DNA from: Chlorokybus atmophyticus
Lineage: Eukaryota; Plantae; Mesostigma and Chlorokybus algae
Length of the DNA stretch: 64,000 nucleotides
Reading direction: 5' to 3'
NCBI GenBank assembly: GCA_009103225.1
Contig: RHPI01001946.1
Span: 62,001 to 126,000, forward strand
Part shown: piece after piece, positions 3,328 to 27,115 of the stretch
Position numbering within the stretch: position 1 is the first letter of the stretch
Layout of the letters: the number at the start of each line of letters is the position of its first letter
Notes under the pieces: model-generated
The model's database searches: none
What the model saw: only the letters and a program-made list of their open reading frames with translations
Told to the model about the DNA's origin: nothing
Position numbers and translations under genes: made by a program

Positions 3328-6300
3328 TTTGAGGCGGCCTCAAGGGGGCCCCCTTGGGGGCTCGCTTGCTTTAGGACATAAACATATACATAAACATATA
3401 CACATACACATACTCATGTTATACATACCTTGCAACCAACTACATACATAACGCGCGATAATGGTTTGCACATGAAGAGCAAATGCGAGCAACATCGAGA
3501 CATCATTTAATAGGTTCAAATAAGCCTATATGCCAGCAACACAACCCGCGACGATTGTCGCCTTGCAACACTGTAATCAACACGCGCAACATCCATGAAA
3601 GTGAGGCAACACCTTCTCATGATCAATCAATCAAGTGACACGCACGCGCCATGACCACGCACGCCAGCAATCAATGCATTGATGCACGCCATCAACATCA
3701 CCATAACGCAAACACAACCATCAATACTATAAACATCAACACAACGCAGCATGACAACATCTTACCACCAACAACTTCATAGCAGTCAACCAGACTACCG
3801 ATGCATGCGTACCGTTGATAGCAAGTATAGTTACAGCAGACGACTCGTTGCTAATGCATGTAATAAGCATGCGCAACAGCATTAAGCATGCCAGCCAACA
3901 CTACGAAATCCTTTGCAACAGTATGCTTAATTACACGTGATGTTAACTATTACGTGTAATTCAGCATACACGTGATGTCAAATAGGTTAACTTGTCTTCC
4001 ACCATGACAGGCAGCATGCCAATGGTTTGAAATGGCAACCACTGTTAATGTGCTTTTATCCATGATGCAACATGTACGCACATGCGACGCCGGCATGCTT
4101 ACGAGTAACAAACCTTAACCGCGACAAACACGCGCGTGCAGCTACCTGCTCGCTTTTAAGCATATGCACCACACCGTTGCGACATCAAACATGTTAGTGC
4201 AATATCAAGGTGCATGGGAATGGTCGCAATCAGCTACTTGCTCGCTTTGCATACATTCCATTGCGACATCAGGGTGCACGCAAATGGTTGGCATGCCGCT
4301 AAGCTGACTTGCTCGCTTTCAAGCACGTCGCTGTGACAGAGCATGCCGACATTAATTTGCACGCAAGTGGTCACAATCGTTTGCCTGCTTGCCTGTGCGA
4401 TATCATGTATCATGCCAAAATCAGCCGATGAGTACCAGCAGTTGCCGTTACGACATCAGCCATTCCAATGCGACATCAAATGCACGCAAATAGTGATTAA
4501 TAATTACCTGCTCGTTATGATAATGGCTAATATAACAGTGCGATATCAGGTATCATGCACACAACAACCGACGCATACTCCGTCTACTCATCGGTTGCTA
4601 ATAGCATCAGTAGCTCGCCTTCAAGATGCCTAACAAACAATGTTGCGACAGCAGGCATGTCGACACTGACGTCAGTGCGACGTCAGTGTGCACACGAATA
4701 GGCATTAGCTTTGGCTTGTTGGCTTTCGAGATGTCTAGCATGCTGTTGCAACATACGGCATGCCACTGCGATATCGCATTGCACGCAAACGCGAATGATC
4801 TCAAGCAGCTGTTTGCTTGTCTCTAAGCGGCCAGGCATGTGCAATATATCATATACACAGCAGCAGCAAGTGACTGCAGCTATCCGCTTGCACTTAAGAT
4901 GTCCAGACATGTCAGTGCGACTTCAGGTAGCTCGCGAATGGTCACAATCAGGTACCTGCTTGCATGTGCAGTATTAAGCATGTCACTACGATATTAGGCA
5001 TGCTTGCCTCCAGTTCAGCATGCACGTGCGACATTCATGCAAATAATTATCAACGCATGACTGCTTGCCTCTGCTCAAACATACACACATATGCAAACCA
5101 ATTTTCATGCGAATGGTCACAACTACTCACGTTGTTGTGAAATTAGAGTAGGCAACGACATCCCGTACCATGCGCATCATAACCGACAATTTTTTGCTTG
5201 CTTGGATTCAGATGTGCACGCCTGTGCGACATAGGGTAATATGCGAACGGTCACCGTCAGTTAACTGCGTTACCTTCAATAAACCGGAATAAATTACTTG
5301 TGTGCAACAAAAAAAACGAACGAATGGTCACCTCCAATGTCTTGCTTGCGCTTAACACACCCATGTGCACTAATAGGCATGCGCATGTTTGCCAGCGAGG
5401 TGGGCTCCCCCTCCGCAGCGCACGTGCTATGGCAGGGGCTGTTACGACTAGCATGTAACACACGTTTACTACCTTTTAGCACAATTACACGCGACATCAA
5501 GTTGAAGGATAATCCAGAGAAACATGATGTGTGCGAGATACGACTACATCCGTATTCACAATATTGCAATCACGCCATAATAATAACCCATATCAAATAC
5601 AATATGTATCGCTACGCAACAGCTAATACAAGTGATAAATGGTAAAAACTGCAACAATGGTGAATAAAACCAATGATGAAAGCAAGTGAATCGATTGTGT
5701 TCATACCTCTTCACATGAGCGCGCCCCTTATGCACATGCGCCGCCGGTAGTCGCCGCATAGCAGCTCGCTAGTTTAAGCGCATGTGTCGATAAGATCATA
5801 AACGCATTTTCCAACCCACATTAACGGGGGGCAGGCGGACCATGCTTGCTCGTGGCACGGAGCTCCTTGACCCAGCACACGGCGCCAAGCACACGAGCAT
5901 CTCCGTGCAGCGACAAAGTCGGATGCGGCTAAGAATTGCGTGAGTTGGCTGCAAGCACGTCGCATCACGACACGTCAAACGTCGAAGTGTTTGGCTACGC
6001 GACTCCGTGATTGCACGCTAAGCAACGATGCCGCGGTCTCCCATCACCGCACGAGGAATCCTCTGATTGAAAAAGACGTCATGAATTGCAAGGAAGCAAT
6101 TGCGGCAACATTGCCGTCGCGTCCAATTTGAGACGTGACGTGACACTTGACGTGACTAAGCGGCCGGCTGTTGTTGGCGACGGATGACGTCGCCGGTTTC
6201 GGCACCCGCTGGTGTTCAATGAATCAACCATGATGGCTTAGGTCTTCATGGTGAATGGGGAAAGGCCTGTATTGATTCGCAAAAGCGCATCAGTAATTGC

Positions 6301-6514
6301 AACATTCAGCGATTTCGCCGATGTCACTGCCTCACACGGTGGTGGTCGGATGTTCGCACAATGGGACGCTTGTACAACACCTGATCTGCCAATTGGTGCG
6401 ATTGTGATGTTGTTACAAGTCGTCTCGGGTTGTTCATAGCAGCGCATGAAGCCCATGGTGTGTACAATGTACACACTAGGTTACTAAGGGGGCCCCCTTG
6501 AGGCCGCCTCAAGG
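3328..6514. mobile_element. Non-autonomous TIR DNA transposon, superfamily unassigned
   Basis: Perfect 27-bp inverted repeat TTGAGGCGGCCTCAAGGGGGCCCCCTT at 3329-3355 and 6486-6512. 8-bp direct repeat TGTTACAG at 3320-3327 and 6515-6522. No transposase ORF seen inside. Confidence 0.75.
4130..5260. repeat. Degenerate minisatellite inside the TIR element
   Basis: Recurring motif GCGACATCA..TGCACGC.AATGGTCACAATCAG.TAC.TGCT.GC at irregular spacing of roughly 60-100 bp. Confidence 0.6.
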
Positions 6515-7254
6515 TGTTACAGGCGAATATCCAAGGCAAATTGAGGGTTAATCTTATACAGTAAGGGAATTAAGCAGCCTATTTGCTGCAGGCTTTCCTA
6601 TGCCGGCTCGGCCTGCACGCTGCGAGGTTGCGTAATGCGGCACAAATGCTGTAAGGTTGGGGCAAGGTTGGGGCAGCCGATTCAAGGCGGCAATGGATGT
6701 GGTGGACGTGAACGTGGCGGTGGAGGAGGAGCTGGCAACCCACACGCAGTGCGCTCAAATAACTACCGTACTTGTTTAACTGCTGGCCGATACTGACGCA
6801 AGAGCAAGGTATCATGAATTGGTTACCGACAACTTGTATAGCTTGCGTGTTGAATGTTGTAGCTCATATGCTTTGCTGAGATTACATCGCATATCCGCAT
6901 TGCATGCTCTTAGTTCGAACCATCTAGACTTAAACTTTGCTTGTTTTCCTGACAGTTGTCCTCACTGTCTTTGCCCTTCTGGCTAACTTAGCGGCGCTAG
7001 ACCATGAGCTGACTACATTTCTGTCGGTTGGCACACACAGGCTTCTATCTCAACAGGTATCGGCTATTGGCTGCTTAGTTGTGCAACAGTGCAGAGCTGC
7101 AGGCTTAATGTCTCATGAGACTAATTCTAGTGGTGTCTTTGCAGCTCGCTTTACCGTTTTTCCTTAAGGGAGGGCCCGCTGCCTGCTGCTCGCCTCGACT
7201 GCGCTGCTCCTCGCGCCCTCGCCTCCAGCGCTAGCTTTTCCATTGTACCTGCCC

Positions 7255-8891
7255 TCAAACCAAGGCATTCCGCCTGATGCTCGTAAGATGTGATGCTGCT
7301 TGCACTGTCCCTCTTGCGCCAGAGGAGTCTTCGTCACCCTCGCCATCGAGATCCTCGCCATTGAGATCCTCGCCTTCCCATTCTGATTCTCTTGGGAAGC
7401 CGTTGTCCTCTAAGATTGCGAACATGTTGGTAAGCAATATGCTCATGTCCATGTGCATGTTAGTGTTAGTTGCTGCTGGTGCAAAGGCATGTTGTTGTAG
7501 TGGTCGTTTCCGCACACCCCGTTTGTGCAGGCTGCCTTGCTGCAGGTTGTATTGCTTAGGCATAGGTTGTAAGTTCTTACAGTTGAAGCATGTTTCACGC
7601 TGCTCCTTCACGCGCAGATGAAAGCTGGCTATCGGCTTTTCATGGTCTAAATGTCAGCAGTCTCCCTAGTTGTCCTAGGTCATTCCCCCGCCATACTAGT
7701 GGAACTGACCTTTAATGCATCTCTCGAGGAAGGAGGTGCATCGGATAAGCTCGATGGTGCGCTAATCAAGGGTCTTGCCACCCAGGCCCTTGAATGCTTG
7801 TCGTGTCCTGCATCTGCACAGGCAAGCAATGCGGTACACCACGTCGTTGCGGTAGCGTTCCCGCTGGGCAGCATTGACACAAGTCTTGCATAGGGTGCGT
7901 GAGGTAGATACAAATGAAACCCCTCTTTTGTTCACCGCATGTGTTGCATTTGCGTTCGACACCCTCCTTGGTTTTCTTGTATGATCAGAGCCATCAACCC
8001 CCGCCTGCAAGAGGTGCAGTACTATTAATAGTCTGTCTGACGAAGCGCTCTGTGTGTTTAACTCGACATGGGCGCCCTTCCAACGAGTAAGTTGATAAGT
8101 TTGTAACGCTATGCTTGCATGCTCTGCTATGTTCTCATTCTTCTACTTGCCTTGATAGGTTGGGACCCCTTTGGCAATGACTTCGAGCTTTACTTTGGCT
8201 TCTTCGCGCTCTTCCTCTCGGCATTGGACACACTGCCCATTCACAAGGTAAACCTCGGTGTGCACGCGAGGGCATTGTGTTTCAACTGCATAGTAAAATG
8301 AGCATGTACACAAGTTTGTTTGGTGTGTTAGCTTAATGTTAGCATGCTCTCACACGACTCACTTGATTGGACAATTGCTTCAAGTGTTGTGACACGCGTG
8401 GGGAGGTCTTCTTGCTTTCTCTTCTCCCTTTGTTTGCTGTAGTTGATTTGCGTCTTCTTGTACACTCCACGCTGGTCAAAGAGCTCAAGTAGAACTCCGT
8501 ATGCCCCTCTAGACATGGCACCTCGGCTGCAAACAAGTTGATATTTGCTACTGTTGTGCTTTCATGTATGTGCGTGCAATGTATCTACTAAGGTGGCACA
8601 ACTGTACATGCTTGTGCAGTGCTGATGCTTCTCAGTGTGTGACTTGATGTTGCACTTGCTTTTGCTTGTCTGACCTTGATATGTTGTTGCGTCAGCATGT
8701 GCTAGGTTGGCCATGGCTGCTCGGTTAGAGCGCACCCATTGCTGCTCGCACTGCAGGCACCTCCTACCATTCTTTGCGTAGCGGAGTGTGCGCTCCTCGC
8801 CATCCATTATGACGATGTAGTCTACATTTCTGGAGCAGGGTATCCCATGGAATTTCCTTGGTGGTAGTGGCTGCACGCAATCCATCTGCAT
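7255..8891 (-). pseudogene. Spliced Cys/His-repeat + HNH endonuclease gene, copy A (stops and frameshifts)
   Basis: Exons encode IPCSRNVDY...RYAKNGRRCLQC, VPCLEGHTEFYLSSLTSVEC, QCPRVHTEVYLVNGQCVQC and PCRVKHTERF..YCTSC. These are followed by RYRNDVVYRIACLCR...GMT*DN*GDC*HLDHEKPIASF...QRETCFNCKNLQPMPKQYNLQQGS and an acidic tail. Confidence 0.75.
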
Positions 8892-10569
8892 TCATCGGCA
8901 CATGCAAGTGAGTACTGCCACATGGCCCAAGTGCTAACTGCTAACACAGCATGTGTGTGTATGTGTGTTGTGCATGCATGTGTATATGGTGCTCTTACTA
9001 CATAGTCATGGGTGCATTGATTCTCACGTTTTTGACTGAGTGTATACACATTCCCCAGTTGTTAATTCACATCATATGTGTGTATGTGTTGAGTTGGTTG
9101 GCATGCGTCTGTGTAGTACTGTTATTACCCAGTCATTGAGTGTATACACGTGCGCAGTGCAATGCTATTACTGACAATTTACGTGCATACTTATGCTACT
9201 ATACGCTTGTAAAGGAAGTGTACATATGCTACCACCCACACCAGGTGGTACGTGCATTGCTTGGTTGTCTAGTAATGACTGTCAAGATACCTTGGTGACT
9301 GGCGTGTACGTGGTCATGGCAGTACTACACATATCATGCTTTGCACAATACACATAATAAAGTGTACAGCTGTGTGCTTGTAAACGCAGGTGGAATTGGT
9401 TGGAGCACCATCCTTGGTTAAAAAAGTTGTTGCAAGTTAGCATGCAAGCTTACTTACCACTGGCAAGCTTCTAAGAGTTGGAGACGGTTGTTAGGCTATC
9501 TTTGTGTGCGCAAAGTGTTGTACAGCAGGTGTGGAAGGATTCTGGCTTGCGAATAGTACAGCTTCAGTTGCTACTTAGTTAGGCGGCCTGACTGTACACA
9601 TATGTGCAGTCCTGTTGCTGCTTTTGTCTACTTGTGTGGGTTGTGTAGCTACTGATCGCTGGCGTGTTGTACTGGGCTCTTGCAGCTACCACCTCTCTTG
9701 ATGGTTGGTTGTCGCCAGTCAGAAAACTCCTACTTCTAAGTGGTTGGCCTACATGTGGGTGCTGCTGCGCCGCCAGTAGTTCAGTCTCGAGTTGTAACGG
9801 GAGCAATAATAATAGGGGTATTATTGCTACCTAAATAACACATTTTGTATGAATAAGTATTTAAATATGCTTATTTATACCTCTTTTCTACGGTTCCTCG
9901 CTTATTAAAGGCTATGATGCTTTATCATAGCTTAAATAAGTCCCAATGGGTGTAGAACCGCTTATTCAAGCCTATTTAGTGTCACATTTGATATAATGTG
10001 ATCACTATCTCGTTAGGTACCTTACGATAGGTATCTTTGGATAGGTACCTTATCGATAAGTACCTTATCTGAGCTGTGATTGGCTCACGCTAGATTTCTT
10101 AACTACCCTATCTGTAGGGTCGATGTGTAGTTGTGAGTTAATTATCGCGAGGTATATAGTTGATATACTCTTGATATAAAAGGTCACATCAATCTGATGT
10201 GGGGACTTGGAGTTCTCTGCTCAGTGGCGGCCACGCCGTTGAAAGACTTGTCATAGGCGGTGTGGGTGTTGGGGTAGAGGATTGAAGGGGCATCACCGGC
10301 GACGGTGGTGCTGTTACATTGGTATCCGGGAGCAGGGGGGTGACGTGGGTACTTATAGGGGGCGGCGACCTGCTTTCGGCCAATCAGAAGGCGTCGGCGG
10401 CGGCCTCCTATTCGTCCACGCAGCCCAAGCTTCAAGTTCGCTTTCCTGCGCTACCTCCACGTTGAAGCCACCTATCAAAGAGGCGGCCTTCCCACGTGTG
10501 AGATACCATTACACGTCGGTGACTTGCCTGCTTGCCTGCTTGCCAGGTGCTTGCCAGGTGCACGTGTGT

Positions 10570-11015
10570 ACACACAGTGACTTGCCAGTGCACTATCATT
10601 GCTTGCAGTGATTGCCTGTCATTGCATGCGGTGATTGCGGCTTGCTAGTGTGCCATCACTGTTTGTCACACTTAGTGCACTATCATTGCTTGCAGTGATT
10701 GCCTATCATTGCATGCGGTAATTGCTTGTCATTGTGCTTGCCAATGCATGTCACAGTTAGTCACCGTACGGCTTGCCTGTTGCATGCCTGTGACGTACCT
10801 GTGACCTGCCAGCGGCTTTGCCGGGTCGTTTGACCCGGGTCCGTAAGTTCCAAACCAAACTGTTCCCAAACCCTCCCCCTCTGGCTTCGGCATGGAGATC
10901 GGGACTTGGTTAGGACTGTTGTGGGGAGGTTCTAGGACAATCTGTTCCCAAACCCTGTTAGTCTGAAACCCTCCACCTCTGGCTTCGGCCTGGAGATTGG
11001 GACTTGGTTGAGGAC
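10570..11015 (+). repeat. Two pairs of direct repeats in the retrotransposon 5' leader
   Basis: AGTGCACTATCATTGCTTGCAGTGATTGCCT.TCATTGCATGCGGT.ATTGC twice (about 10585 and 10675). CTGTTCCCAAACCCT and CCCTCC.CCTCTGGCTTCGGC.TGGAGAT.GGGACTTGGTT twice (about 10860-11010). Confidence 0.85.
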
Positions 11016-11210
11016 AACACAGGGTTAGGACATTCTGGTCCCACTTAGACTTGTTCTGTTTGGTGACACTTCAGATCCAACCTTTCCTATTTTGGGACTG
11101 GTTTGGACTCTGTTTGGGACTTTTACAACTTGGGGTCATTTTGATCCTCTCGTTGAACCTGGTCCATTGGTGAGGTTCTCACCATCCCATTCTGCCTGTT
11201 TTGCAGAGAA

Positions 11211-12388
11211 ATGGAAGAAAACTCGGTGCCCACCTCAAAAGGGGAGAGCTCGAAAAAAGAGCAACCTTCCCGTGAGGAGGAATTTCCATCCATGGAAGAT
11301 ATTCCGAATCCGGATGATGCACCTGATGAGTCTCAAGCTGCCAAAGCTGCGGAAGCTTCAATGGATGATAGATCACCTTCTATATTCCCTGAGTTTTCCA
11401 TTCGCATGACACAGCAGGACTTGATGGAGCATTTCTTTAACACCTATGATCAGGACCCTCGTGAGGCGATTGTCTCATTCGTGAACTTTCTCTTCCTTTT
11501 GGCAGAAAAAGTTTCAAAGCTCACCACCTTTATGGGGCAAGATTGGGAGGGGCAGATGGGTGAAGGCAAACGTGTTCTGAATATGATCGAGCGTCTTCAG
11601 CGTGCTGACGGTGGTCCACCTGTTCAAGCACTTGCTCGTCCAACCGAGTTTGTTCCCAACAAGCAAGCGGCCATCTTCGACTGGCTTGTAAAGTTGCGAC
11701 ACTATGTCAACTCCCTTCACATTTTTGAGGAGGGGAAATTGCGTGTAGCTGAGTTGCTGATCCCAAACGATGCTCTGGCAGAGTGGTACCGCCGTAAGCG
11801 ACGGGATACAAACCTCGGGCGGGAAGTAAATCAGTTGTGCTTTTTCATGGAGCAGCGCAATGGTGGCGCAGATCCTGCCCAGGTTGCTCGCAACCAGCTG
11901 CACAACCTGCGTCAGAACGGGCGTCCGGTTCAGCAGTACATCCAGGATTTTCAGTCGTTTGTCAGCAAGATCAATGCTGGCAAACTACCTATCAGTGATG
12001 CTGATCAGCTGGATATGTTCAGGCGTGGCTTGGACACAGATCTCGTGCAGCATGTGGCCGTCAACCCCGCGAGTTTGCAAGTGAGTGGGCCTCGACGGAT
12101 TTACCAATGCTGATGCAGATGGTTGCTGCTGTGGACAGTGTAAAGCGCTCTCACGCCAACATGCAAACCACGGCAAAAGAGGCAGCCCCGGTTTCAGCTG
12201 CAAAGCGCCCGGCCACTGACAACAAACCTTTTGTGAAAAGGGCGAAACCATCTCATCCTGCTAGCCCCTACAATGCGGCCAAATCCATTATCACTTGCAG
12301 TTTCTGCAAGAAGACAGGTCATGGGGAGGCTAAGTGCTATGCAAAACAGAATGCACAGAAGGCGAAGCAGCAGAGAGACAAGAAATAG
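11211..12388 (+). pseudogene. gag: Retrotransposon gag with one frameshift near 12080
   Basis: ORF 11211-12113 has gag-like LRQNGRPVQQYIQDF and DMFRRGLD. It continues in another frame (EWASTDLPMLMQM...) to the zinc knuckle CSFCKKTGHGEAKC and a TAG at 12386. Confidence 0.9.
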
Positions 12389-12759
12389 GAATTGTCCGTG
12401 GTTGGTAGCTTAGTCGAGCAGAACGACTTTAAAAACTCTGTACTTCTTGATAAAGTTTTCTCTCTTTGTGATGTATCAGATGTATGGACTGATATGAGCA
12501 CACCACCTGTGTTGAAAAATACAAACGGTTGTGTTTCAATCAATGTTCCATTCTCTGAATTAGTAAGTGATGTTAAGCACTTACACGAGTTGCAATTACA
12601 ACATGCTGTCACTGCATGTGTAGTTATCCCTCGATATCATGGCCCATGGTCGCAATTGTTGAAAGGGGGAGACATGGTGTACCCATAAGTTGACTCTCAA
12701 ATCTCCATTTGAGTGGCACTGAGTGACCATCAAATGTAGCTAATGTCGGAGTGCCGTGA

Positions 12760-15700
12760 TTGGTAGCAGACTTGATAAAGATCACTTGCAACGGTGAAGC
12801 TCCTGTATCTTTGCGTGAGAGTTGCATGATTGATGATACTGGTGCAAACCATAACTTTGTTGAACATGCTTGGGTGAAACGTAATAACATTCCTTTCACA
12901 CCAGTCACGTCATATGTACGTGCTGCTGGTTCCACTCTCTATGCAATGGGAGAGGTAAAAGGGCGTTTTGTTATTAATGGCCATAAAACCCGACCAGCCT
13001 TCATTGTGGTGGATATTAGAATCCCCGGGGTGGATGTTGTTTTAGGGGAGCAATGGCACACTGAAGCAGGTTTACAATTAGACTCTCGAGCCAATACATG
13101 CACCCTTCGTAAAGGGAAACGTAGGATGACTTTAACAGCATCTGTACTCGCATGTATACCTCTCGATAATGTTCCGCTCCTCTCTGCTATGCAATTGAAA
13201 CGTTGCATGCGTAAACATGAGGAAGTATACTTTCTGCACTTACAACAGGTGGAAATACCTGCTGAACAGGCTATCAGTGACCCTGTGGTGCAGTCACTTA
13301 CAGAACAATACGCAGATGTATTTCAGGATGAACTCCCAGAGTTGCCTCCCGATCGAAACATACATCATACCATTCCGTTAGAGGAGGGGGCAAAGCCACC
13401 TTGGCGGCCTATATACAGGCTAAGTCCCTTAGAACACGCGGAGATGGAAAAACAGCTTAAAGAGTTATTGGACAAAGGTTTAATAACAAAGAGCATATCT
13501 CCTTTTGGTGCACCAATTTTGTTTGTGCCCAAAAAGAATGGCAAGCCACGCATGTGTATTGATTACCGTGCGTTGAACAAGGTAATTGTTAAAAACAGAT
13601 ACCTTTCGCCTCGGATTGATGATTTGTTTGATAAGCTGTCAGGTGCAACAGTGTTCAGCACGCTGGATTTGACCAGTGGTTATCATCAAATCAGAATCCA
13701 CCCGTCGGATATACAAAAAACTGCATTTCGCACCCCACTAGGACACTTTGAGTATAAAGTGTTACCATTTGGGTTAACAAATGCACCGGCTACATTTCAG
13801 ACAGCAATGAATGCGGTATTTGCTGATGAATTGTACAAGTTTGTACTGGTATATTTAGACGACATTATTGTGTTTAGCAAAACCCGGGAGGACCACCACA
13901 GGCATGTGGAATTGGTTCTAGCTAAGTTACGCGAACACAAATTCTATGCCAACCTGTCCAAATGCAACTTTGCAAAGGATGAACTACCCTTTTTAGGGCA
14001 TGTGATTGGCAAAGAAGGATTGAAACCAGATCCTCAAAAGGTGTGTGCGGTAAAGGATTGGCCACCACCCAAGGATGTACATCAGTTACGTGCTTTCTTG
14101 GGGCTAGCCAATTATTTCCGCAAGTTCATGCGAGCATATTCTGGCATGGCAAATCCTTCAACATCTTTACTAAGAAAAGATGTTAAATTTGTGTGGACGG
14201 AGGCACACGCGGTTGCTTTTACACGCATTAAAGATGCATTAACGCAAGCCCCTGTGTTAGCCTTCCCCGACCCCACCAAGCCTTTTGTGGTGATCAGTGA
14301 TGCTTCCACCATTGGGTGTGGGGCAGTCCTTCTACAGGATGACAGACCATGTGCATATGAAAGCAGAAAGTTCATTCCTGCTGAACGTAATTACACAACC
14401 ACTGAGCAGGAATTGCTCGGGGTGGTGCACGCGCTGCGCACATGGCGTTGCTACTTGGAAGGGGTGGAGTTTTCAGTAATTACTGATCACAACCCGCTCA
14501 CATTCTTTCATACGCAACAAAATCTGTCGAGGCGGCAAGCTAGGTGGAATGAATTCATTTCTCGTTTCACTTTCACTTGGCAATACCGTCCGGGTCGCAC
14601 CAATGTGGCGGATCCAGTAAGTCGCAGCCCTGCTCTTTTGGCGCTTACGCGCTCTCGAAGTACGCGTAATGTACAACAGCCTGAAGATCCTTTCTTAAAG
14701 GAAGTGTCCGCAGGTTATAACTCAGATGATTGGTTTAGCAGTCAAACCAACTTGCAACAGCTTACTGCTGTTAGCAATTTGTAGTATAAAGGGGAGCAGT
14801 TGGCAATTCCCAACTCGGGCGACTTGCGTAAGCAATGCTTACATTCAGTGAATGACCCGCCGTATGCTGGGCATTTGGGGAAACACAAAACACTCAAATC
14901 TGCGCAACAGTTATGCTGGTGGCCGTTAATGTCAGCTGACGTGGATCAATATGTTCGCACATGTGACGTGTGTCAACGTAATAAGCCACTACGACAAAAA
15001 CAAGCGGGATTGCTTAAACCATTGGCAATTCCAGAACAAAAGTGGGATAGTGTCAGTATGGATTGGATTACTGACCTACCTGAAACAGCAGCTAAATACA
15101 CTGCTATTGTGGTTTTTGTCGACCGTTTAACTAAAATGGTGCATTTTGCCCCGTGTTGCACAACTGTAAGTGCACGGGACTTGGCACACTTATTTGTGTC
15201 CACGGTCTTTCGCGTTCACGGGGTACCGCGTGAACTTGTCACATATCGTGATCCTTGGTTTGTCTCCAAGTTTTGGCGAGAAGTCTGTGAATTGTTGGGG
15301 GTAAAACAAAGCATGTCGACTGCTTTCCACCCGCAAACGGACGGTCAAACTGAGCGAGCAAATCAAATACTGGAAGAAATGCTTCGCCACTATGTGGCTC
15401 CTAATCATGCTGATTGGGACAGGTACTTGCCAATGGCAGAGTTCGCTGTGAACAACGCGTGGCAGGAAAGTGTAAAGGAAACCCCATTTNTTTTCTTGAA
15501 TTATGGGATTCGCCCGAACACACCAGCGTCATTGCGTGTACCTCGCAATGCCCTGATTGTACCAGCGGCAAAGGAATTTGCCACTAATATGCAAGAAAAT
15601 ATGGCTCGAGCCAAGCTGTGTCTGTCAGAAGCACAGGACAGGCAAAAAGCTTATGCTGATACACATCGAAAAATGGCCACTTTCGATGTCGGCGATAAAG

Positions 15701-16110
15701 TTTTGCTTAACGCAAAGAACATAACCATCAAAGGTACGGGTGCTCGCAAGTTGCTGCCCCGATGGTTAGGTCCTTTCTCTATCACTGATAGAGTTGGTAC
15801 GCACGCTTATCGACTGCAATTGCCCCCAAGCGTGCGTATACACAACGTGTTCCATGTGAACTTGTTGAAACCTTACCGCTCAGACGGTAGAACACAGCCT
15901 CCACCACCGCCAGTTGAGGTGGACAGCGAGCTCGAATACGAGGTGGAAGCTATATTGAACCATAAGCTAAATAGTCGAGGACGCGCAACTCGCTATTTGG
16001 TGAAATGGAAAGGGTATGGCCCGGAACATAACAGTTGGGAGCCCGACAGGCATCTTACGCACTGCCGCGAGTTGCTTCGAGCTTATTGGGATTCATGTCC
16101 TGTCCCATAA
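12760..16110 (+). pseudogene. pol: Retrotransposon pol (protease, RT, RNase H, integrase, chromodomain) with a nonsense codon
   Basis: DTGA protease motif, YLDDII RT motif, RNase H DAS...YESRK...TDH, integrase H-H-C-C zinc motif and SMDWIT, chromodomain YEVEAIL...YLVKWKGY...SWEP. In-frame TAG at 14782-14784 (expected Trp). The second catalytic Asp of integrase reads Tyr (VTYRDP, 15244). Confidence 0.95.
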
Positions 16111-17915
16111 ACTGTGGGCTTGGTTTTATGACAGACTGGCAGTGCAGTTTCATTACCACCCTGTCATTTCCTGCTATCTCACTGGTTACAATTACTCGAA
16201 ATCAAGCCTGATCAACTTGAGTTCAACGAGGACGTTGAAAACCTAAGTGGGGGGGAATGTAACGGGAGCAATAATAATAGGGGTATTATTGCTACCTGAA
16301 TAACACATTTTGTATGAATAAGTATTTAAATATGCTTATTTATACCTCTTTTCTACGGTTCCTCGCTTATTAAAGGCTATGATGCTTTATCATAGCTTAA
16401 ATAAGTCCCAATGGGTGTAGAACCGCTTATTCAAGCCTATTTAGTGTCACATTTGATATAATGTGATCACTATCTCGTTAGGTACCTTACGATAGGTATC
16501 TTTGGATAGGTACCTTATCGATAGGTACCTTATCTGAGCTGTGATTGGCTCACGCTAGATTTCTTAACTACCCTATCTGTAGGGTCGATGTGTAGTTGTG
16601 AGTTAATTATCGCGAGGTATATAGTTAATATACTCTTGATATAAAAGGTCACATCAATCTGATGTGGGGACTTGGAGTTTTTTGCTCAGTGGCGGCCACG
16701 CCGTTGAAAGGCTTGTCATAGGCGGTGTGGGTGTTGGGGTAGAGGATTGAAGGGGCATCACCGGCGACGGTGGTGCTGTTACACGAGTAGTCTACTGAGT
16801 TTGTCCAGCATTGCCACTATTAAGTAGTGAACTTTTGTTACTATTACATTGCTGATGACTGACTGTTTGTGGGTGTACACACACAAGCAGTGAATAGTAC
16901 TGCATGCCCATTTAGTCATAGTGTAATAGTGCAGCTGCTGGTGTTTAGTACTGCTGCTGCGGTCTTGTTGCTTGCAACCACTAGTAGTTACAGGTCGACT
17001 ACCACGCTCAGCCAGCGGCTAGTTACACGGTTGTACTATCTCATGATCGCACATTCAGTCAGTAGTACATAATTGCATGGCATGAGACTACAAGTCATAA
17101 GCTACATACATGCCACATGCAATGCTGCAGCTATAAGTAACTCAGTCACGTGCATGTGTTGTGCTTGTTGGACATCATTCTGAACTTTCCCACATTTTCG
17201 TTTTCACCGTTTCCACGTTTTGATTACTTTCATGTTGCTTTCGCGCGCTGTTGCTAGCGAGTCGCTACTAGTTGATTACTTCATTTTTTACTTTAGGGTT
17301 TTCCACATATAAAACTAGGTGGTACTAGGTGAGTCTCAGCAATGCATCTGTCAGTGACATCCATCTAAATGTTTTCGATCAGATGAGTGCGCATCCATTT
17401 TCGAGTTTACCACAATATCATTTGCCGCATTCCTACTACGCACAGCCCTCTCGTCCTTTTGCCATCGTTAACCCTCTTCCTTTTACCGCCCTTTCACCTC
17501 TGTGCGTCTTCCTTTTTGCTTTTACAAGACTAACCCTTATACTGGGTTTTGCATGTTGATACATCGCACAACGACTACTGCGCGTCAGGTGCTTTCTCAA
17601 TGCCCTAACTTACAATATCAATATATGTTGAGCACACGGTTTTTTACTAGGGTTGAGAACCCACCATTATGTTGGGTAACTACTTTTGTTGAAAGAACGT
17701 TCTTTGTGAGTTGCATGCAATGTTGACCATCTACATAACCAAATCAGCTCAAATGACATTCTTCAGTTATAGTTATAAGCATGCTCATAATGGGGTAACC
17801 TAACAAACATAGCAGTGTTATAGCTGTTCCGTATCGACGCACACATGTCTTAGTAGCGTTGATATAGCTCCAAGCTTTGTTGGCTCTATATGATCGAGGG
17901 ACGAGCTTTAATAAA

Positions 17916-18480
17916 CACCAACCTGCAGCAAATGCTATCCGCCTCGGACGATCCGAAGCATATACTGCGCATGCATATACATATATGTGTGTGTGTGTGT
18001 GTGTCGCATGTATATTGTGATATGTAAGTATCACACGTATACATCGTATTATATCATTATTCAATGCATAAGTTAATTTCACAAATAGATAAAGATAGTT
18101 TATGTAGTATATGTATACTCCCTTCTTACATACATATATGTGAATGCACTACATATGCATATATGTACACACACATATATGTGTATATAAATATATAATT
18201 TACGTGAATATATAATTTATGTCTGTTAGCTTAACTTGGTCCAATTATGTGTTTTAATGATCACCAACCTATAGCAAATGCTGTCCGCCTCCGACAGTCC
18301 GAAGCATATATTACGCATACAAATACATATATGTGTGTGTCGCGTGTATATGATGTTCGGTTACATGTAAGTATCACACGTATATAACGTATTATGTCAT
18401 AATTCAATGCACAAATCGGTACCATAAATAGATAAAGATAGTTTATGTAGTATAAGTATACTCCCTTGCTATACATGTAT
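17916..18480. repeat. Degenerate tandem duplication (period about 346 bp) in AT/CA-rich sequence
   Basis: CACCAACCT..AGCAAATGCT.TCCGCCTC.GAC..TCCGAAGCATATA at 17916 and 18262. Both units end in AAATAGATAAAGATAGTTTATGTAGTAT..GTATACTCCCTT. Confidence 0.85.
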
Positions 18481-18764
18481 GTTTATGGACTATATATGCA
18501 CATATGTATATACACATATATATACATATGCATATATATACATACATATGTATGTACTAGTATATATGTGTATATTGTTGTGTTCTTTATTTGTTCGTTC
18601 GTGTTAAGCTTGATCATAAATGAGGCTTTTCGGTTCATCTTAACAAAATATTGTTATTTTAATATAAAATCATCGTTATTGTTACAGTAATGGTTATTTG
18701 TTCGTTTAACGAAGCCTAGGTCTAGTTGGTTCTCAACTCCATTTTCAACTCACTCAGGCACTCT

Positions 18765-21700
18765 TGATTACTTTTCATGCTCTCGCGCGCTCACTCAGTC
18801 CGGCAGTCCGCTGACAGCGGAATACGTGATTTATTGCTTCGCAAGCCAGCCATCCTATTGGCTGGCCTGCGTCGCACCAATTGGCTTGTGACAATTTGGG
18901 GGTAGCCCATTGATGCCGCCCCAAACTGTCACATGCGTTAGGCAGATGGGGGTAGACTGTGTAGAGGGATCAATGTGCAGCCATATAACCGCAGCCTATT
19001 CGGGGCGGGCTTGACCTGCACTCGTTGTGAGGTTGCAAACTTGGCATTGCTTCTGGCAAGGTTGCAGCGGCTGATGCAAGGCGGTGGCGGCAGTGGAGGA
19101 CGAGGCGGCGGAAAGGAGGCGTTGTATAGGTTAGGCTGCCTTTGCTTCAAGTAGTCATTGTACTTGCCTGCTAGCCTATATGTACAACAGCGCCAGCAAC
19201 AAGGCATCAATGGTTATATCCGCTTGAGTCTTTATGTGTTAGCTTGAGTGTTGAGCTACGGCCTAATGCATGCTATCTTTGCTGCTTGCTCGACGCTCTG
19301 TGTTTGACTTCGCAGCGCCGGCAGGGCCTACACAAAGCGCCCAATAATTCAAGTAGCCAAGTCACCTGTAAGGTATCATTGGTTAGTCCGTTGTTTCAAG
19401 TTATGCTTGATTGTCCAACACTGTGTGGGAGTGCAATCCGCATGTACATTTGTTATATTTGTTGGCTAAGAACTTGCTACATATGTTCTCCTCTTAGCTC
19501 TCTTCACTCATTTCGCCTTCAAGAGGGGGCCTGCCTTACTTGTGGGCTCAGCGAGAGTCGCAATGTGCAAGACCTCTCGAGACGCTAAGTTACCTACTTA
19601 TCTACTGAGGTTGGCATGCCAACAGTTGGCAACCACTCTAGCATCCAGCTAGCTTTTCAACAGGTATCGGTGGCTAGTGGTTTGAGCCGGGTTGTAACGC
19701 TGCGTTGCGTGCACATGTGCAATGTATCTCTCTCCACACATCTGTATGTGTTTTAGTAGGAAAGTGTGAGCTCAATCTCGGTAATGTCCTGGCAGTTATC
19801 ATTGTCTTTCCTTCAAGCATACATGCTTGCTGCTTACACTATTGCCTCCAGCACCAGCTACCCTTCCTGTACTTGACCTCAAGCAAGGCATGCTGCCTGC
19901 TGGTTGACGGCGCTGTTGCTAGCGCCGTCAACTCCAGTGTTAGCGGCAAGGAGGGTTGTCTTCTTCCTCCTCGCCATCGAGATCTTCGCCTTCCCCGTCT
20001 CGTTCTCTCGAAAAGCCGTTGTTCTTCAGGACTGCGAGCATGCTGGTAAACAACATGCTCATGTTTAAATGCATGTCATCTGCTGGTGCAAAGGCATGTT
20101 GTTGTAGCGGTCCTTACCGCACCCGGTTTGTCTTGCTGCCTTTCTGCAGGTTGTACTTCTTAGGCATAGGTTGTAGGTTTTTGTTAGTTGAAGCATGTCT
20201 CACGCTGCTCCTTCACGCGCGGGTCAAAGCTAGCTACTAGTATTGGCTTTCCGTGGTCTATGTGCCAGTAGTCTCCCTGGTTGTCCCAGGTCATCCCCCT
20301 TCCATACTTGTGGAATGGACCCTCGATCCAAGTTTGGAGGAAGGAGTAGGTGCATCCGAGCAGCTCCACTGTCCTCTCTGCAATGTTGAATGGCAGGGTT
20401 CGCATGGCTTTAAATGCTTGCCATGTGCGCGTACGGCATATGCAGGCAAGGCGATATACTACGTCGTTGCGGTAGCGTTCCTGCTAGGCAGCGTTGACAC
20501 ACGTCTTGCGTATGGTGCGCGAGGTAGATACGAACATCATGATGAAACCCTCTTTCTCTTCACCAAATGTGTTGCATTTGCGCTCAAAACCCTCCTTGTT
20601 GTCTTGTATGATCTTAGCCATCAACCCCCGCCTGCAGGGGTACAATAGTCTGTGGCCACAAAACGTTTTGTGTGTCCCCCACTCGACACGGGCGCCATAC
20701 AAATCAGTAAGTTAACAAGTTAACAAGTTTAAGTTGCTATGCTTGCATGTTTTCTTATGTTCTCATTCATCTTCTTACCCTGATAGGTTGGGACTCCCTT
20801 CGCGACGGTTATGCGCTTTGCTTTGGCCTCTTCACGCGCTTCCTCTCGGCATCGCACACATTGGCCATTAGGAAGGTACATTTCGTTGTAACTGCGCGGG
20901 CATTGCAAAACAATAATTTTTCAGCTGCATAGCAAAATTATTATGTACACAAGTTTGTTAGGTGTGTTAATTAAATCTTTGCATGCTTTCATACACTGTA
21001 TATATAAATCAAGTAAGCAGCTGGCAGCTGCTTACTTGATTAAACAATTGCCCCAAGTGTTGTTACATGCATGGGGAGGTCTGCTTGGTTTCTCTTCTCC
21101 CTTCGTTTGATGTAGTCGATTTGTTCTTCCTTATACACTCCATGCAGGTTGAAGAGCTCAAATAGAGCTCCGTATGCCCCTCTACACACGGCACGTCGGC
21201 TGCAAACAGGTTCACATTTGCTATTGTTGTGCTTTTATGTGTGTGTGTGCAACGCATCTATTGAGGTGGCACGGTTGTACATGCTTATGCAGTGCTGGTG
21301 CTTCTCAGTGCGTGTGACTTAATGTTGCACTTGCTGTTGCTCGTCTGCCCTTAAATATTTTGTTGCATCAGCAAGTGCCAAGTTGGCCATGGTTGCGCGG
21401 TTGGAGCGCACGCATTGTTGCTCGCATTGCAGGCACCTCCTTCGATTCTTCACGTAGCGGAGGGTGCACTCCTCACCATCCACCATGACAATGTGGTCTA
21501 CATTTTTAGGACACGGTATCTCATAGAACTTTCCTCGTGGTGGTGGCTGCACGCAACCCATCTGCATGGCACACGCAAGTAAATATTGCCGCATGCCCAG
21601 CCCAAGTGTTAGTTTACATCATGTGTGTGCATGTGTTGAGTTGTGTGTATAATGGTGCTTATTCTACTTAATGCATTGATGTTGTTATCGACCTCGCATG

Positions 21701-22350
21701 TGTATACACCTGTGCATTGCTAATGATGACACTTACTATTTGTGTACAGTGCTGCCACTGCGCTACCACTGACTGCACTTGTGCACAATCGCTTTTTGTC
21801 TGTGGCTACTTCTGATGGGCAACTAGTACGTGTATGCATGTGCTAGGCATGTCAATGCTTTCTTTACATGCATTAAGCAGTACACAATGTAGGGGCAGGT
21901 GTACCATTAAAAAGTCGGAGTTTGTACTTTTTAAGAATTGTTGTGGCACTCATTTCATGCTCAATAGCCAACTTTCCACAATAATGAACGTGTTGCTAAC
22001 AGTGGATGTAGCTGCTGACAGTAGATGTGCTGCTGCTGCACCGCTACTTGTGTGGTGTGGTGAGTAGCTGTAGCGCTGCCGTCTGATTGTCTATTTGTGT
22101 GCGCAATGCACCTCTAGTGAGACCACCTCCGCCCACAGTAGCGTGTGAGCAGTGCTGTCGCAAAGCTACCCATACCTCTTCGAGCATTTTAAAGCTAGTC
22201 TACTTAAGGACAGTGCTGTTGCTGCGTCATTATCATCTTCGGTCGCCTGCAGGTAGCCACTGCTCCTGCCACTCACTACTTTGTGCAGTGCTGCTGCGCC
22301 TCTTAATGTGTGTGTAGTATTGCTGCTGATGTAGCTTGCTGGTAACCATT
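18765..22350 (-). mobile_element. ZnF-HNH repeat element, copy B (about 3.6 kb, no large insertion); ends approximate
   Basis: Colinear with de-nested copy A across both non-coding flanks and the gene. Confidence 0.6.
19940..21594 (-). pseudogene. Spliced Cys/His-repeat + HNH endonuclease gene, copy B (best preserved)
   Basis: IPCPKNVDH...RYVKNRRRCLQC; VPCVEGHTELYLSSSTCMEC; CPRSYNEMYLPNGQCVRC...GVPTYQG|gtaag; PCRVG(fs)HTKRFVATDYCTPC. Then ERYRNDVVYRLACICRTRTWQAFK...TVELLGCTYSFLQTWIEGPFHKYGRGMTWDNQGDYWHIDHGKPILVASFD...EQRETCFN(fs)NLQPMPKKYNLQKGSK. Confidence 0.85.
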
Positions 22351-22499
22351 TGTGCAATTCGTATCTTCGAGACGTTCAGCTACCCAAGGAATTGTATTGC
22401 TCTCTATATGCAGTTGCAACGTGTTTGTGTTTTCCATAAACTAGTATGTAATGCTATGTGTGTGTAGGGTGATAATCAAGGCACTTGCAGTAATAATAA

Positions 22500-23130
22500 A
22501 AGTTACCAAGTGTGTAGGCTACAATCTCATGCATGCATGTACCACGCAGGTTAAAGATCTCAAATAGAATTCCGTGTGCCCTTCTGAGCACGGCGCTTCC
22601 GTTCAAGGAACCATTGCAACTTGCAGTTGAACTGTGCATACATTAAGAATAGCAGCACTTTTTGCCACACGACTCGTGTGACACGAGTGCACCGAAAGTG
22701 CCGCGTGGCATGCAATGCTGCTATTCCTAACGTATGCACAGTTGCTGTGGATCCTTGCTTGTAGAAGGTTTGTGGAATTTTGCTGGTCGATTTCAAGGGT
22801 TTTACTCTCATCATCTACAACCTCGCTGCACACCATCGATGACATCTTTTGCTCAACCACGGTTTGTCACTCGTTCCATACCCCAGCTCTAACTCCTCCT
22901 TTTGCCTTGCGTGTCGCTTTCGTGTGTTTGTTTTATGTCTTGCATTTATTGCGCGCTCACATATGGTCAGCGTTGCTGTCTTACTAGGGAGTGCACGCGA
23001 TCCTTTAAACAAAGTGAATTCATTGATGCGTCCGCCGCAATTTAATGTCTCGTTACCCAAATATAAGACATGCGCGTTACCAACTGCACCGCAACATTTG
23101 GTAGACAAACGCACCAGTTGTGGTCAAAGC
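22500..23130 (-). pseudogene. Fragment of the ZnF-HNH gene (repeat exons only), inverted relative to copy C
   Basis: APCSEGHTEFYLRSLTCV at about 22545-22600. ATLTICERAINARHKTNTRKRHARQK at about 22900-22980 matches 24190-24270 on the opposite strand. Confidence 0.7.
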
Positions 23131-23799
23131 CATAATAAGCGCTATGTCACGACCTGCTGCGGCAAGACATGCTGCTCATGATCTTGCACACGTGAGCACT
23201 GTCATTTGCCGTGCAGTGTGGCCTAGTTGGCATGGCATTGAGCTCATAATTTAGACGGTCGGGGTTCCAACGCCTACACACCGTGTAATCCTTGTGACAA
23301 CAAGATCTTTCACGATTAAGTTGTTTTTAGCAATCTGCGCCGAGCATGCGCGCTAATGGAACTAGCACAACTTGTATAGTGCTCGCTAAGCGAATTCACA
23401 CAAATCCGGCTTTTCCACATCTCATGCCCACAATGTCAACCTCAGCCATTTTTGAAAAGTATCCATGCAAATTGTGCGACACACCTTACTAAGTATGTAC
23501 AGTATGTATGAATTGAGTATTTGTTTTTGCTTCACAACTCGTCGTTCATTGGCTGGGTTGTGACTCGCAAGCAAGCCAATAAGACGCTTTGGTTCTCTTG
23601 AAAATGTAAAAGAGCCCGTAAGATGAACATGAGATAAACATGACAACCCCAAAAACATTCGCAATGCACATATTGGAAGCAGTGGCATAATAGCACTACA
23701 CATATGTGCATTCAATTGTTAATAATATCTTATACTTGTCAATAGCGGATCTACAGCAATTGCGCAATCGGTGATAGCAGCATTATATGCACACACCAA

Positions 23800-25460
23800 G
23801 TGCAAAATCACATTTTCGCAGCAGAAGAGCCGTGCTCAGAAGGGCACACGAAGGTCTACCTAAGCTCTTTAATCAATCATAATATGCGTGGAGTGCACGA
23901 TAAAGCGAACGCAAGTCAATTATGGCAAGAAAAAACAAGGAAACAGCAAAACTACACACGCGTGTATCAGTGCTGGGGACCATTGGCCAAGCAAATGAGC
24001 ATGCCAAGTTGAGTGTGCAAAGTTTATGCTTACACAACTAACCAACTGGTGTCAATGCTCATCTCTCTAGAGATCTATGCCGCTGTAGTATGATGCCCCC
24101 ACCGTCACACCTACATGTACCTAAAAGTTAATGATGAGCTGTGTGTGCGATGCCAAGAGGATGAGCGTGAGAAGGCTTACTACTCGGGCAGCAACGCTAA
24201 CCACATGTGAGCGCGCAATTAATGCAAGACACCAATCAAACACACAAAAGCGACATGCAAGGCAGAAGCAGTTAGTACAGGGGTATGAAACGATCGGAAA
24301 ACCGCGGTCAAACAAAATATGTCGTCGATAATGTGCAGGGAGGTTGTAGTTTTGAGTGAAACCCTTGAAATAGTTAGCAAAAATCCCATAAAACCTTTAA
24401 CAATCAAGATTCCACAACAACTGTGCACACAGTAAGAAAAGCAGCATTATATGTCACACAAGTGCAAAATCATCTATTTGCACTCAAAGTGCCGTACTCA
24501 GAAGGGCACAAGGAGTTCTATTTGAAATTTTAACTTGAGTGAAGTGCACGAGAAAGCGCACGCAAGTCAATTTTGGCAAGAAAAGAAAAAAGAAACAAGC
24601 AGAACTATCCACACGTGTTACTATGAGCTATTGTTCAAGTGGGTGCGTATGCAATGGTGAACATGCAAGGAAAGTGTGAGCACACTCAACAAACTTGTAC
24701 AAGCTCATTTGCTGTGCCGCTGAAAAACAATGCCCTTGCGGTCACACCGACGTGTACCTTGCCAATGGCCAGTGTGGGTGATGCCAAGAGGAAGAGTGCG
24801 AAGACCTCGGAGGTTAAAGCAATGCGCAAACCTATTACGAACGGGGTCCCAACATGTCGATGTCAGGTGTTATGGAATAGAGTAAAACAAGTCATTAAAG
24901 CATAGCAACCTACACTTACTGGTTCGCAGGGCGCCTATGCAAAGTGGGACACATAGAACAATCCGTGGCCACAGACTCCTGCAGGCGGGGGTGCATGGCT
25001 CAGATTATACAAGACAACAAGGAGGGTGTTGAGAGCGCAAATGCACCACATGTGGCGAAGAGAAAGATGATTTCAACTATGTGTCTACCTCTCCCACCAT
25101 GTGTAAGACATGCGAACTACTCACCAGCGGGAATGACACCCCAACGACGTGGTGCATCGCCTCGCCTGCCTGTGCGGAACGCGCACATGGTACGCATTCA
25201 AGTCTCGCATAATGTACCACTCAAACACATTAGAGAAAGAACAATTCAACTGTTGAGGTCTAGCTACTCCTTCTTCATAGAGTGGATGCAAGGTCAGTCG
25301 TATAAGTACGGAGGGGGCATGACATGGGACAATCAAGGAGAGTTGTAGCATGTAGACCACGAAGTGCCCATCCGCATTTTTGACCTGGTCGTGAAGGAGC
25401 AGCTGCAGCGTGAAAAATGCTCAACTACAAACCTGCAACCCTTGTTGCACCAAGCGGCAT
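23800..25460 (+). pseudogene. Spliced Cys/His-repeat + HNH endonuclease gene, copy C (opposite orientation, 3' truncated)
   Basis: EPCSEGHTKVYL; CPHRHTYMYLKVNDELCVRCQEDERE; PYSEGHKEFYL; LCKVGHIEQSVATD; RKCTTCGEEKDDFNYVSTSPTMCKTC; RTIQLLRSSYSFFIEWMQGQSYKYGGGMTWDNQGEL*HVDHEVPIRIFDL; NLQPL. Confidence 0.8.
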
Positions 25461-26096: not shown

Positions 26097-27115
26097 TGTA
26101 ACGCCTACCACACACTTACCTGTCATGGTGTGTAGAAGACTTCAAGAAAGAACAACACTTACCAAGTGTTGTCAACAACCACCCCACACGGGAATGGGGG
26201 AGGGCTACTTGAATCGGGCTAGCCACCCCACATGCAGGAGTGGTAGAGTAAGTCCACTCGAGTTCCGTTGCCCAACATACCATTAGCAATACCCTTATGC
26301 ACTCCCACTTGCTGCCCTTCAACCTCGCGCACCAATGGTAAGGCTCCTTGCCTTTCACCTCAGCGTTGACCAACCAGGAGAAAAGGGAGTTTTATCTCTT
26401 GTCTCAGGTCTGCTACATGGCAGCACCATGTGACTATGTCACATCGATGTGACATAGCCAAGCTGTGTCACATCAGCACTGAGCAGCTCTGTGTTGGCTC
26501 ACTCATGCATTGTGCAACTTATCATGCCCAAGGCCGCATGGGCTAAAGGGCAGGCTGTGCATGAGCACACCTCACAAGCGTACGTACGTGCATAAGTACA
26601 TGCATGCGCACACGCCATAAGCACTTACACACGCTTATAAAATGAAAAATCCCACTTGGTCCCTTCTTACCAACATACGTAGTAGGAACAGAGAATGGTT
26701 TTTGCCAGCCTTACAGGTGTGACATTCCTCCCCACTTGCTCGCCAACGACCGCGTTGAAACATATGGAACACTTGTATCGCACAAGCCGGATGTGGGTGA
26801 TGATCACCCTCATATTGGGGATTAAATCCCGAATCGGCGGCTGCACTCCATGTAAACATAGTGCGAGTCGTGGGAGTGACAACCAACTATGATGCTAACC
26901 ACTAATGCGCGCGATGTTGGTATGTTACATAAAGAGGTTGTGGGATGGTGCACATGTGCCTGCAACCTTGCATTTGGCAGAACAGTTGCCAAGCTGATCG
27001 GCTCCCAGGCGTTATGTCTCTTCCCTATAACCAAGCCACTTATTCAGTTTAAAACTTTGTTTACGAAGCTTTTCAAGCTTCATAAACTGCGTTGCCAACA
27101 TATCATGGCAACGAC
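26097..27115 (-). mobile_element. 3' end relic of a second chromovirus: chromodomain fragment, PPT and 3' LTR (26097-26724)
   Basis: Minus strand KWLGY(fs)HNAWEP at about 26990-27050. GTGGGGAGGAA purine tract directly before TGTCACA. The LTR ends in GTTACA and resembles 38674-39688. Confidence 0.7.

Follow-up and report, generated by a model that had tools for sequence, protein, structure and literature searches.

We analysed a 64-kb window of Chlorokybus atmophyticus DNA (contig RHPI01001946.1, positions 62,001 to 126,000; GC content 43-54%), which holds several decayed copies of one gene for an HNH nuclease preceded by an array of Cys/His fingers. The gene is of virus type, probably spliced, was formerly under selection, and has an unusual build with one finger per exon. 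An initial inspection confined to the letters of the DNA (hereafter, the sequence-only reading) had proposed three degenerate copies and one fragment, a count borne out by the alignments among copies A, B and C and by the inverted fragment D. The copies, with the exons of copy A given separately, are:

8675-8885, minus strand: copy A, exon 1; finger 1, a variant C-H-C-C; open frame with a third-position bias relative to B
8363-8526, minus strand: copy A, exon 2; finger 2 and a linker; frame broken by 1 nt in A and in B
8151-8285, minus strand: copy A, exon 3; finger 3; phrog_1081 match, E 0.0024
~7258-8076, minus strand: copy A, exon 4; finger 4, CxxC..CxxC module, HNH nuclease and acidic tail; phrog_1035 match, E 2.5e-4
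19940-21561, minus strand: copy B; four-exon gene interrupted by stops and frameshifts and lacking two of its splice sites; intron 2 holds a fold-back palindrome (21007-21041)
22543-23004, minus strand: fragment D; inverted relative of the upstream exons of C; fold-back at 22630-22743
23750-25445, plus strand: copy C; begins with additional finger exons that arose by duplication (23750-24170), followed by fingers 2-4 and the HNH

Copies A (7205-9014, minus strand) and B (19828-21681, minus strand) are 75% identical over 1,905 alignment columns, and copy C (24455-25440, plus strand) is 66-67% identical to each of them. Copy C contains an internal tandem duplication (23750-24170 resembles 24411-24801) and has no match to exon 1, no acidic tail and no flank in common with A and B; fragment D (~22543-23004) is an inverted relative of its upstream part. 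The other 38 kb of the window were searched and gave no further gene match beyond 27 kb. When contigs from public sequencing runs were compared with copy B and its downstream flank (18700-21225), one run (X1) yielded three short pieces of 99+% identity, covering 577 of the 2,526 nt and possibly derived from the source sample, while the contigs of two others (X2 and X3) held no piece of it.

The proposal that the gene is spliced is supported by predicted splice sites and by the codon-position pattern of the differences between copies, and three spliceosomal introns are likely. In copy A the introns measure 148, 77 and 74 nt, and every one is in phase 1. Predicted GT/GC-AG splice sites are present at six of six positions in A, and are kept at four of six in B and three of five in C. 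The A-B differences at first, second and third codon positions number 10/8/18 in exon 1, 7/10/16 in exon 3 and 30/12/40 in exon 4, a third-position bias that is absent from the introns (7/8/5, 6/3/6 and 6/5/7). Intron 1 (A 8674-8527 and its counterpart in B) differs between the copies at 20 of 148 sites, fewer than do third codon positions. Each exon opens with one C-H-C-C finger, and exon 4 continues with the CxxC..CxxC module and the HNH domain, followed in A and B by the acidic tail; in copy A this exon carries five in-frame stops (within 7258-7908). The sequence-only reading had placed the start of the last exon at the CxxCGEEK region, but the predicted start lies ~70 nt further upstream, which adds the fourth finger. 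Duplication of a symmetric phase-1 exon leaves the reading frame intact, so the finger array probably grew, judging from the exon layout, via duplication of phase-1 intron-plus-exon units.

The motifs that had been quoted from the last exon are present, and the assignment to a virus-type HNH is supported by sequence, profile and fold. The last exon of A matches phrog_1035, the PHROG endonuclease VII family, with E 2.5e-4, and the family's own profile gives matches with E 1e-25 and 1e-29. Among 105 family sequences D88, H89 and N112 are invariant and N121 nearly so; the D-H pair and both Asn are present in A. A structure model of this exon (mean predicted local distance difference test score, 71.8) found mimivirus L246 as its best fold match, together with a Xanthomonas phage HNH protein and giant-virus proteins, seven viral models in all at E≤1e-3. 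Solved structures matched the model weakly (Cas9 HNH, Z 3.9, root-mean-square deviation 3.8, 70 aligned residues). A Pfam search of the window's exons returned nothing significant, a PDB sequence search gave 0 matches, and the best score of an Atlas search with exon 1 was 0.87, which is below threshold. The predicted product is a set of tandem C-H-C-C fingers joined to an HNH (ββα-metal) nuclease of a phage/giant-virus family, its activity being a prediction.

The relatives of this protein are numerous. A search with the last exon of copy B, its stop read as X, retrieves 9,195 representatives at E≤1e-3, of which 128 reach 1e-10. A metagenomic intronless open reading frame (ORF), P0115, holds phrog_1035 and phrog_1081 in one frame; the finger type of the window copies occurs in 23 of 407 family members and CEHxx-type repeats in 18 of 407. 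The nuclease family is present in 76 phage records (query P0021), and giant-virus metagenome-assembled genomes account for 13 of the 80 viral loci listed for it. Proteins of Chromera velia stood at ranks 1, 2, 4, 18 and 19 of the search, ranks helped by two matched stretches in each, and three further Chromera velia proteins came from a search whose query alignment included one Chromera protein. In total, at least eight Chromera velia paralogues of the HNH family, with CEHGR repeats, were found (P0003, P0004, P0006, P0020, P0021, P0154, P0155 and P0177). In several of the Chromera velia gene models the HNH unit occurs twice in tandem or the repeats are read in the opposite frame, which suggests a mis-annotated tandem repeat family; the Atlas neighbours of these proteins are viral clusters at 0.93. 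Of 30 matches looked up by name, six are Chromera proteins and 24 are unnamed or hypothetical.

Thus the best matches are metagenomic and viral proteins plus a multi-copy Chromera velia set, and not an ordinary single-copy algal gene family, the outcome that would have told against the sequence-only reading. In trees built on 112 columns the window copies sit on a long branch and are unplaced, their nearest rows shifting between a 361-row tree and a 45-row tree (hand-chosen rows plus 14 random ones, two Chromera domains among them). Chromera groups with viral CEHNK-repeat proteins (Shimodaira-Hasegawa-like approximate likelihood-ratio test, 94), and a joint clade of Chromera and the window copies is not rejected (approximately unbiased test, p 0.47). 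Closer relatives were sought in several collections: viral contigs searched with the copy B protein gave 0 loci; no metagenome contig matched a DNA pattern specific to the element, and of 134 candidate stretches 0 were confirmed by the copy A protein; and a word-indexed protein search with copy B confirmed 0 of 17 longer and one of seven near-length candidates. One viral contig of the family (L081:1418-12795) is a perfect palindrome with 5.7-kb arms that carry two copies of a CEHNK-repeat HNH gene; this inverted pair is probably an assembly effect, or else a hairpin end. A viral-type origin of the nuclease gene is supported by these sequence and model comparisons.

In the homologue-matching frame, the ratio of nonsynonymous to synonymous differences (pN/pS) is 0.36 for A-B (0.28-0.48; 307 codons), 0.44 for A-C (0.35-0.56; 230 codons) and 0.54 for B-C (0.43-0.68; 232 codons), the last with an interval that overlaps the low tail of the neutral null. 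Neutral simulation gave 0.79-0.80 (0.60-1.04) and off-frame controls 0.91-1.80; the reading frames were picked by eye at each frameshift, a choice that may lower the ratio somewhat. Within the aligned codon blocks, stops occur at 11 positions; ten are private to one copy, and at the eleventh A and C carry different stops. From the private stops and the low pN/pS it follows that three lineages diverged while they still worked and that each later died on its own; that is, the copies diverged under purifying selection before separate inactivation. We also considered whether A and B had been copied when already dead, and this is rejected overall by the pN/pS, with exon 2 leaving a common lesion possible.

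Outside the gene, A and B have in common an upstream stretch and a distal, hairpin-bearing block downstream, whose parts are:

3115-3355, no strand: distal part of the A end block; CCAAT-like words and left arm of a palindrome; starts 31 nt after tRNA-Leu
3356-6485, no strand: insertion in the A end block; 3.1 kb, non-coding, absent from B; flanked by a 14-nt palindromic direct repeat
6486-6800, no strand: proximal part of the A end block; holds the palindrome's right arm and a stretch of ~300 nt that is conserved in B (18912-19180; z 10.7 and 11.9)
17214-17266, no strand: gene-less third copy of the outermost end motif; 83% identical to 3115-3164, E 3e-7
18760-19190, no strand: end block of B; uninterrupted 15-bp stem-loop at ~18890-18934 and a second stem-loop at ~18841-18872

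The unit of about 3.6 kb with more than 1 kb in common on either side, as first proposed, was overstated, since upstream the similarity covers ~0.3 kb and downstream, in patches, ~1 kb. Upstream it ends at about A 9190 and B 21748, ~0.3 kb past the start codon, with two of six bins clearly above shuffles. Downstream, four of five bins in 6500-7249 beat all 100 shuffles (6800-6949 failed), and the similarity continues in patches to A 6486 and B 18906. It resumes between A 3254-3355 and B 18825-18901 (z 13.9, 0 of 60 shuffles), past the 3.1-kb insertion in A, which interrupts a palindrome that in B is whole and forms a single stem-loop. In B the unit is therefore ~3.0 kb long (18760-21750) and ends downstream in the hairpin-bearing block. 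This block, which follows the gene at a distance of ~0.5-1 kb, is more conserved than the intervening spacer, and in B it folds with z -2.4 (4 of 200 shuffles).

From the A-B comparison, the 3.1-kb length difference appears to be an insertion in A, with a deletion in B as the alternative. The stretch (3356-6485) has diverged internal repeats (4147-5270), a 9-bp hairpin near its right end and no ORF >120 aa; its CpG observed/expected ratio is 1.09 against 0.77 for the window, so there is no CpG depletion. It may be a separate non-autonomous element. The end block also contains words (18760-18900 and 3115-3355) that face away from the tRNA and that we take to be E2F-like, ACGT and CCAAT-like; a gene on the opposite strand, since lost, may have had its promoter here. 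A reading of that strand rich in Gly was considered as a second gene, but it is not claimed as one, as tblastx gave just short pieces in several frames. An apparent downstream match between C and A was equalled by two of 382 unrelated windows, and hence C has no flank in common with A.

The copies lie in an island rich in transposable elements (TEs) that spans 3.1 to ~30 kb, between the tRNA-Leu gene and host genes. It includes:

9793-16783, plus strand: Ty3/gypsy long terminal repeat (LTR) retrotransposon; young and near-intact, with 526-nt LTRs that differ at six positions and a 5-nt target duplication

This retrotransposon, whose end we presume to be chromodomain-like, is inserted upstream of copy A and is no part of the nuclease unit. 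Two repeat pairs (26466-26724 with 39475-39688, and 27716-28003 with 38681-38963) are probably remnants of other LTR elements. An inverted repeat of ~270 nt (69%; 31583-31850 with 32665-32937) surrounds the strongest hairpin of the window and is a possible miniature inverted-repeat transposable element. Near-perfect fold-back palindromes occur at 19902-19933, 21007-21041, 22630-22743 and 32012-32068; the second of these mirrors the intron-2 donor region of copy B, a pattern that suggests template-switch inversions. Beyond the island, a kinase gene (44400-45550) has plant SnRK2 as its best structure matches (E 1e-40), which places the host in the green lineage, and from their translations we presume the other host genes to be TAF9-like (47300-47690), a UAP56/Sub2-like helicase (58900-61600) and LUC7-like (62200 onward).

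What, then, are these dead copies? We put at about even the chance that they were the cargo of a non-autonomous DNA element, probably of a rolling-circle (Helitron/HUH) type, that was moved in trans. A virus-type zinc-finger-array HNH nuclease gene would have gained spliceosomal introns in the alga and would have enlarged its array by duplicating phase-1 intron-plus-exon units. The fingers would bind DNA and aim the nuclease, the end block would serve as a transposon terminus, and a rolling-circle transposase supplied in trans would mobilise the unit. The nuclease might then aid persistence of the element by cutting empty or excised sites, as has been proposed for Fanzor/TnpB cargo, with guidance by protein in place of RNA. 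We favour the cargo reading because it explains the selection before death, the conserved distal end block, the gene-less copy of the end motif and the TE-rich setting, and because there is a precedent in Chlamydomonas. A new selfish-element family is possible.

Several results weigh against transposon cargo. All copies fall within 22 kb of the window, copy C has no end block, and green-algal proteins are absent (0) from the 30 matches looked up by name. The right palindrome arm of A, taken alone, is not significant (31 of 200 shuffles), and hairpins are common here, the end-block windows ranking 22nd and 26th of the strongest non-overlapping ones among 4,241. The nuclease unit contains no transposase, reverse transcriptase (RT), HUH, helicase or tyrosine-recombinase motif. 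Clean Helitron1 ends (5'-TC, 3'-CTRR after a subterminal hairpin, an A|T target) common to A and B were not found, a hairpin plus CTAG being present in A alone. The differences between A and B also hold anomalies: exon 2 has no third-position bias (4/2/4 and 3/7/5) and in both copies its frame breaks at nearly the same point, compatible with one earlier common lesion, and the introns differ at fewer sites (53 of 299) than third codon positions do (91 of 307).

The motif search, which used hand-written patterns, agrees with the sequence-only reading, in which no transposase, RT, HUH or tyrosine-recombinase motif had been found in any copy. Its hits in 3100-26700 were confined to one 'HSLRSG', on the strand complementary to exon 1, and three loose Y..KY words, none of them within a gene copy; apart from the gene itself, open stretches reach at most 137 aa. 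Nowhere in the window is there a RepHel-type HUH or helicase motif of the kind that marks an autonomous Helitron. The hairpin and CTAG at ~6476 were considered as a Helitron1 3' end, a candidate weakened by A-B similarity that runs past it and by the absence of the CTAG from B. Helitron2 elements have asymmetric terminal repeats and hairpins at both ends; the unit has hairpins at one end, the other being undefined from two old copies. Between the inferred ends of A or B, copies that are ~25% diverged, we found no target-site duplication or terminal repeat ≥7 nt, nor was a terminal inverted repeat found at the unit ends; a Replitron would carry short terminal direct repeats, and a terminal-inverted-repeat transposon would combine its repeats with a target-site duplication. 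The unit does not resemble Penelope-like (Chlamys) elements, which are marked by an RT with a GIY-YIG endonuclease and by pseudo-LTRs, as it contains no RT and its nuclease is HNH ('HNH' occurs 0 times in the main text of PMC8557442, on Penelope-like Chlamys), nor OMEGA/Fanzor-like systems, as it has HNH alone, no RuvC domain and no conserved structured guide RNA. The suggestion that the flanks might encode a guide or structural RNA was not upheld by folding (z -1.97 in B and +1.56 in A, with no fold conserved in both), and an Rfam search over 1-28000 gave nothing above threshold except the tRNA. Of the inference made in the sequence-only reading, the virus-derived nuclease is supported by sequence, profile and fold and the gain of introns by splice sites and codon positions, but the homing-like or mobile spread stays a proposal: all copies are clustered, and no target-site duplication was found at the inferred ends.

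The main rival explanation, in our estimate a somewhat unlikely one, is that a virus-derived nuclease was domesticated once here, for instance in defence or genetic conflict, and then underwent local birth-and-death by tandem and fold-back duplication with no transposon involved. Local duplication accounts for the clustered and inverted copies no less well than transposon cargo does and needs no unseen partner: C and D form an inverted pair, fold-backs are found at 19902-19933, 21007-21041 and 22630-22743, the exons of C are tandemly duplicated, and neither a target-site duplication nor a terminal repeat was found. Working paralogues would fit the purifying selection equally well. However, there is no living copy, conservation reappears in a distal non-coding block past a poorly conserved spacer, and the end motif recurs without the gene.

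We consider it improbable that the nuclease was a self-sufficient homing-type element, which would cut a finger-chosen target, have the gene copied in by host repair, and retarget itself as finger exons were duplicated or lost. Homing copies an element to an allelic empty site and by itself makes no non-allelic copies; moreover, the copies are not inside a host gene or a self-splicing intron, and no empty site was seen. On the other side, the catalytic D-H and both Asn positions are found in A, finger number varies between the copies, and Chromera has at least eight paralogues, several with tandem HNH units. Among the relatives is a protein of Bodo saltans virus that bears the name intron-encoded endonuclease, and PMC5871332 describes HNH homing introns in the same virus. 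Very improbable, finally, is that the copies are remnants of a giant virus or Polinton-like virus (PLV) that had integrated and whose genes gained introns. The nuclease family is common in giant viruses, introns are reported in 61 of 506 endogenous giant-virus genes of Chlamydomonas (10.64898/2026.10.09.758095, in part), and HNH genes are known in PLVs (PMC12220804, in part). Yet among 2,094 ORFs from 160 viral loci the HNH homologues alone match the window, exclusively at A, B and C, so no other viral gene was found among them, and around the copies lie a tRNA gene, LTR elements and host genes of ordinary kinds.

Comparison with known systems places the gene more precisely. With the PHROG 1035 family (for example mimivirus L246, Q5UPT5; Xanthomonas phage FoX1 HNH; Bodo saltans virus A0A2H4UUB1) it has the nuclease module and motifs in common; as in the window copies, the phrog_1081 finger is fused in some members and tandem Cys/His repeats in others. 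The viral members, in contrast, are single intronless ORFs, mostly with one such finger, whereas the window gene is nuclear and has at least four fingers, one per exon. The Chromera velia HNH genes (among them Cvel_9800, Cvel_23820 and Cvel_20559) belong to the same family and likewise have upstream tandem C-H-C-C repeats and many nuclear paralogues, but their finger type (CEHGR) differs and they group instead with viral CEHNK-repeat proteins. The precedent in Chlamydomonas is that of non-autonomous Helitron2 families carrying a multi-exon Fanzor, as set out in portions of PMC3627910, and Helitrons there are also described as carrying TET genes (10.64898/2026.10.09.758095, in part). According to the former source, CRe-1/2/3 (C. 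reinhardtii non-autonomous Helitron2 elements with Fanzor1) resemble the window unit in three respects: a nuclease gene that has several exons and descends from prokaryotes or viruses, the absence of a transposase from the unit, and hairpins near an end. They differ in that Fanzor1 uses RuvC and a guide RNA, while the window nuclease has HNH and protein fingers; the asymmetric terminal repeats of Helitron2, a TTTT target and a high copy number were not seen for the unit within the one locus analysed here. The mirusvirus 'shintrons' (PMC12768974, in part) also link HNH homing endonucleases with spliceosomal introns, but in that case a viral gene has an intron that harbours the nuclease ORF, whereas here it is the nuclease gene that the introns interrupt.

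Full-text searches, judged from titles and abstract openings, found no published HNH-carrying algal transposon or Chromera set; supplements, Repbase/Dfam, the curated Chlamydomonas TE library or the appendix of the punuivirus preprint could describe such cargo. A 2017 review names GIY-YIG and PD-(D/E)XK as the homing-endonuclease types 'at least' found in eukaryotic transposons (PMC5718144, in the passage concerned). A broader reading, which we hold to be unlikely, is that eukaryotic mobile DNA recruited a viral HNH as a protein-guided counterpart of Fanzor, with one finger per phase-1 exon and retargeting by exon duplication or loss, and did so independently in Chromera velia as well. If local duplication holds, the story is a smaller one, of another virus-derived gene that acquired introns in an alga and then died. 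If the cargo reading is true, a selected HNH cargo would add HNH to the homing-endonuclease classes of nuclear selfish elements and would allow the proposed role of cargo nucleases in transposon persistence to be tested in a system without RNA guidance, and the finger-per-exon layout would represent a natural modular, retargetable nuclease.

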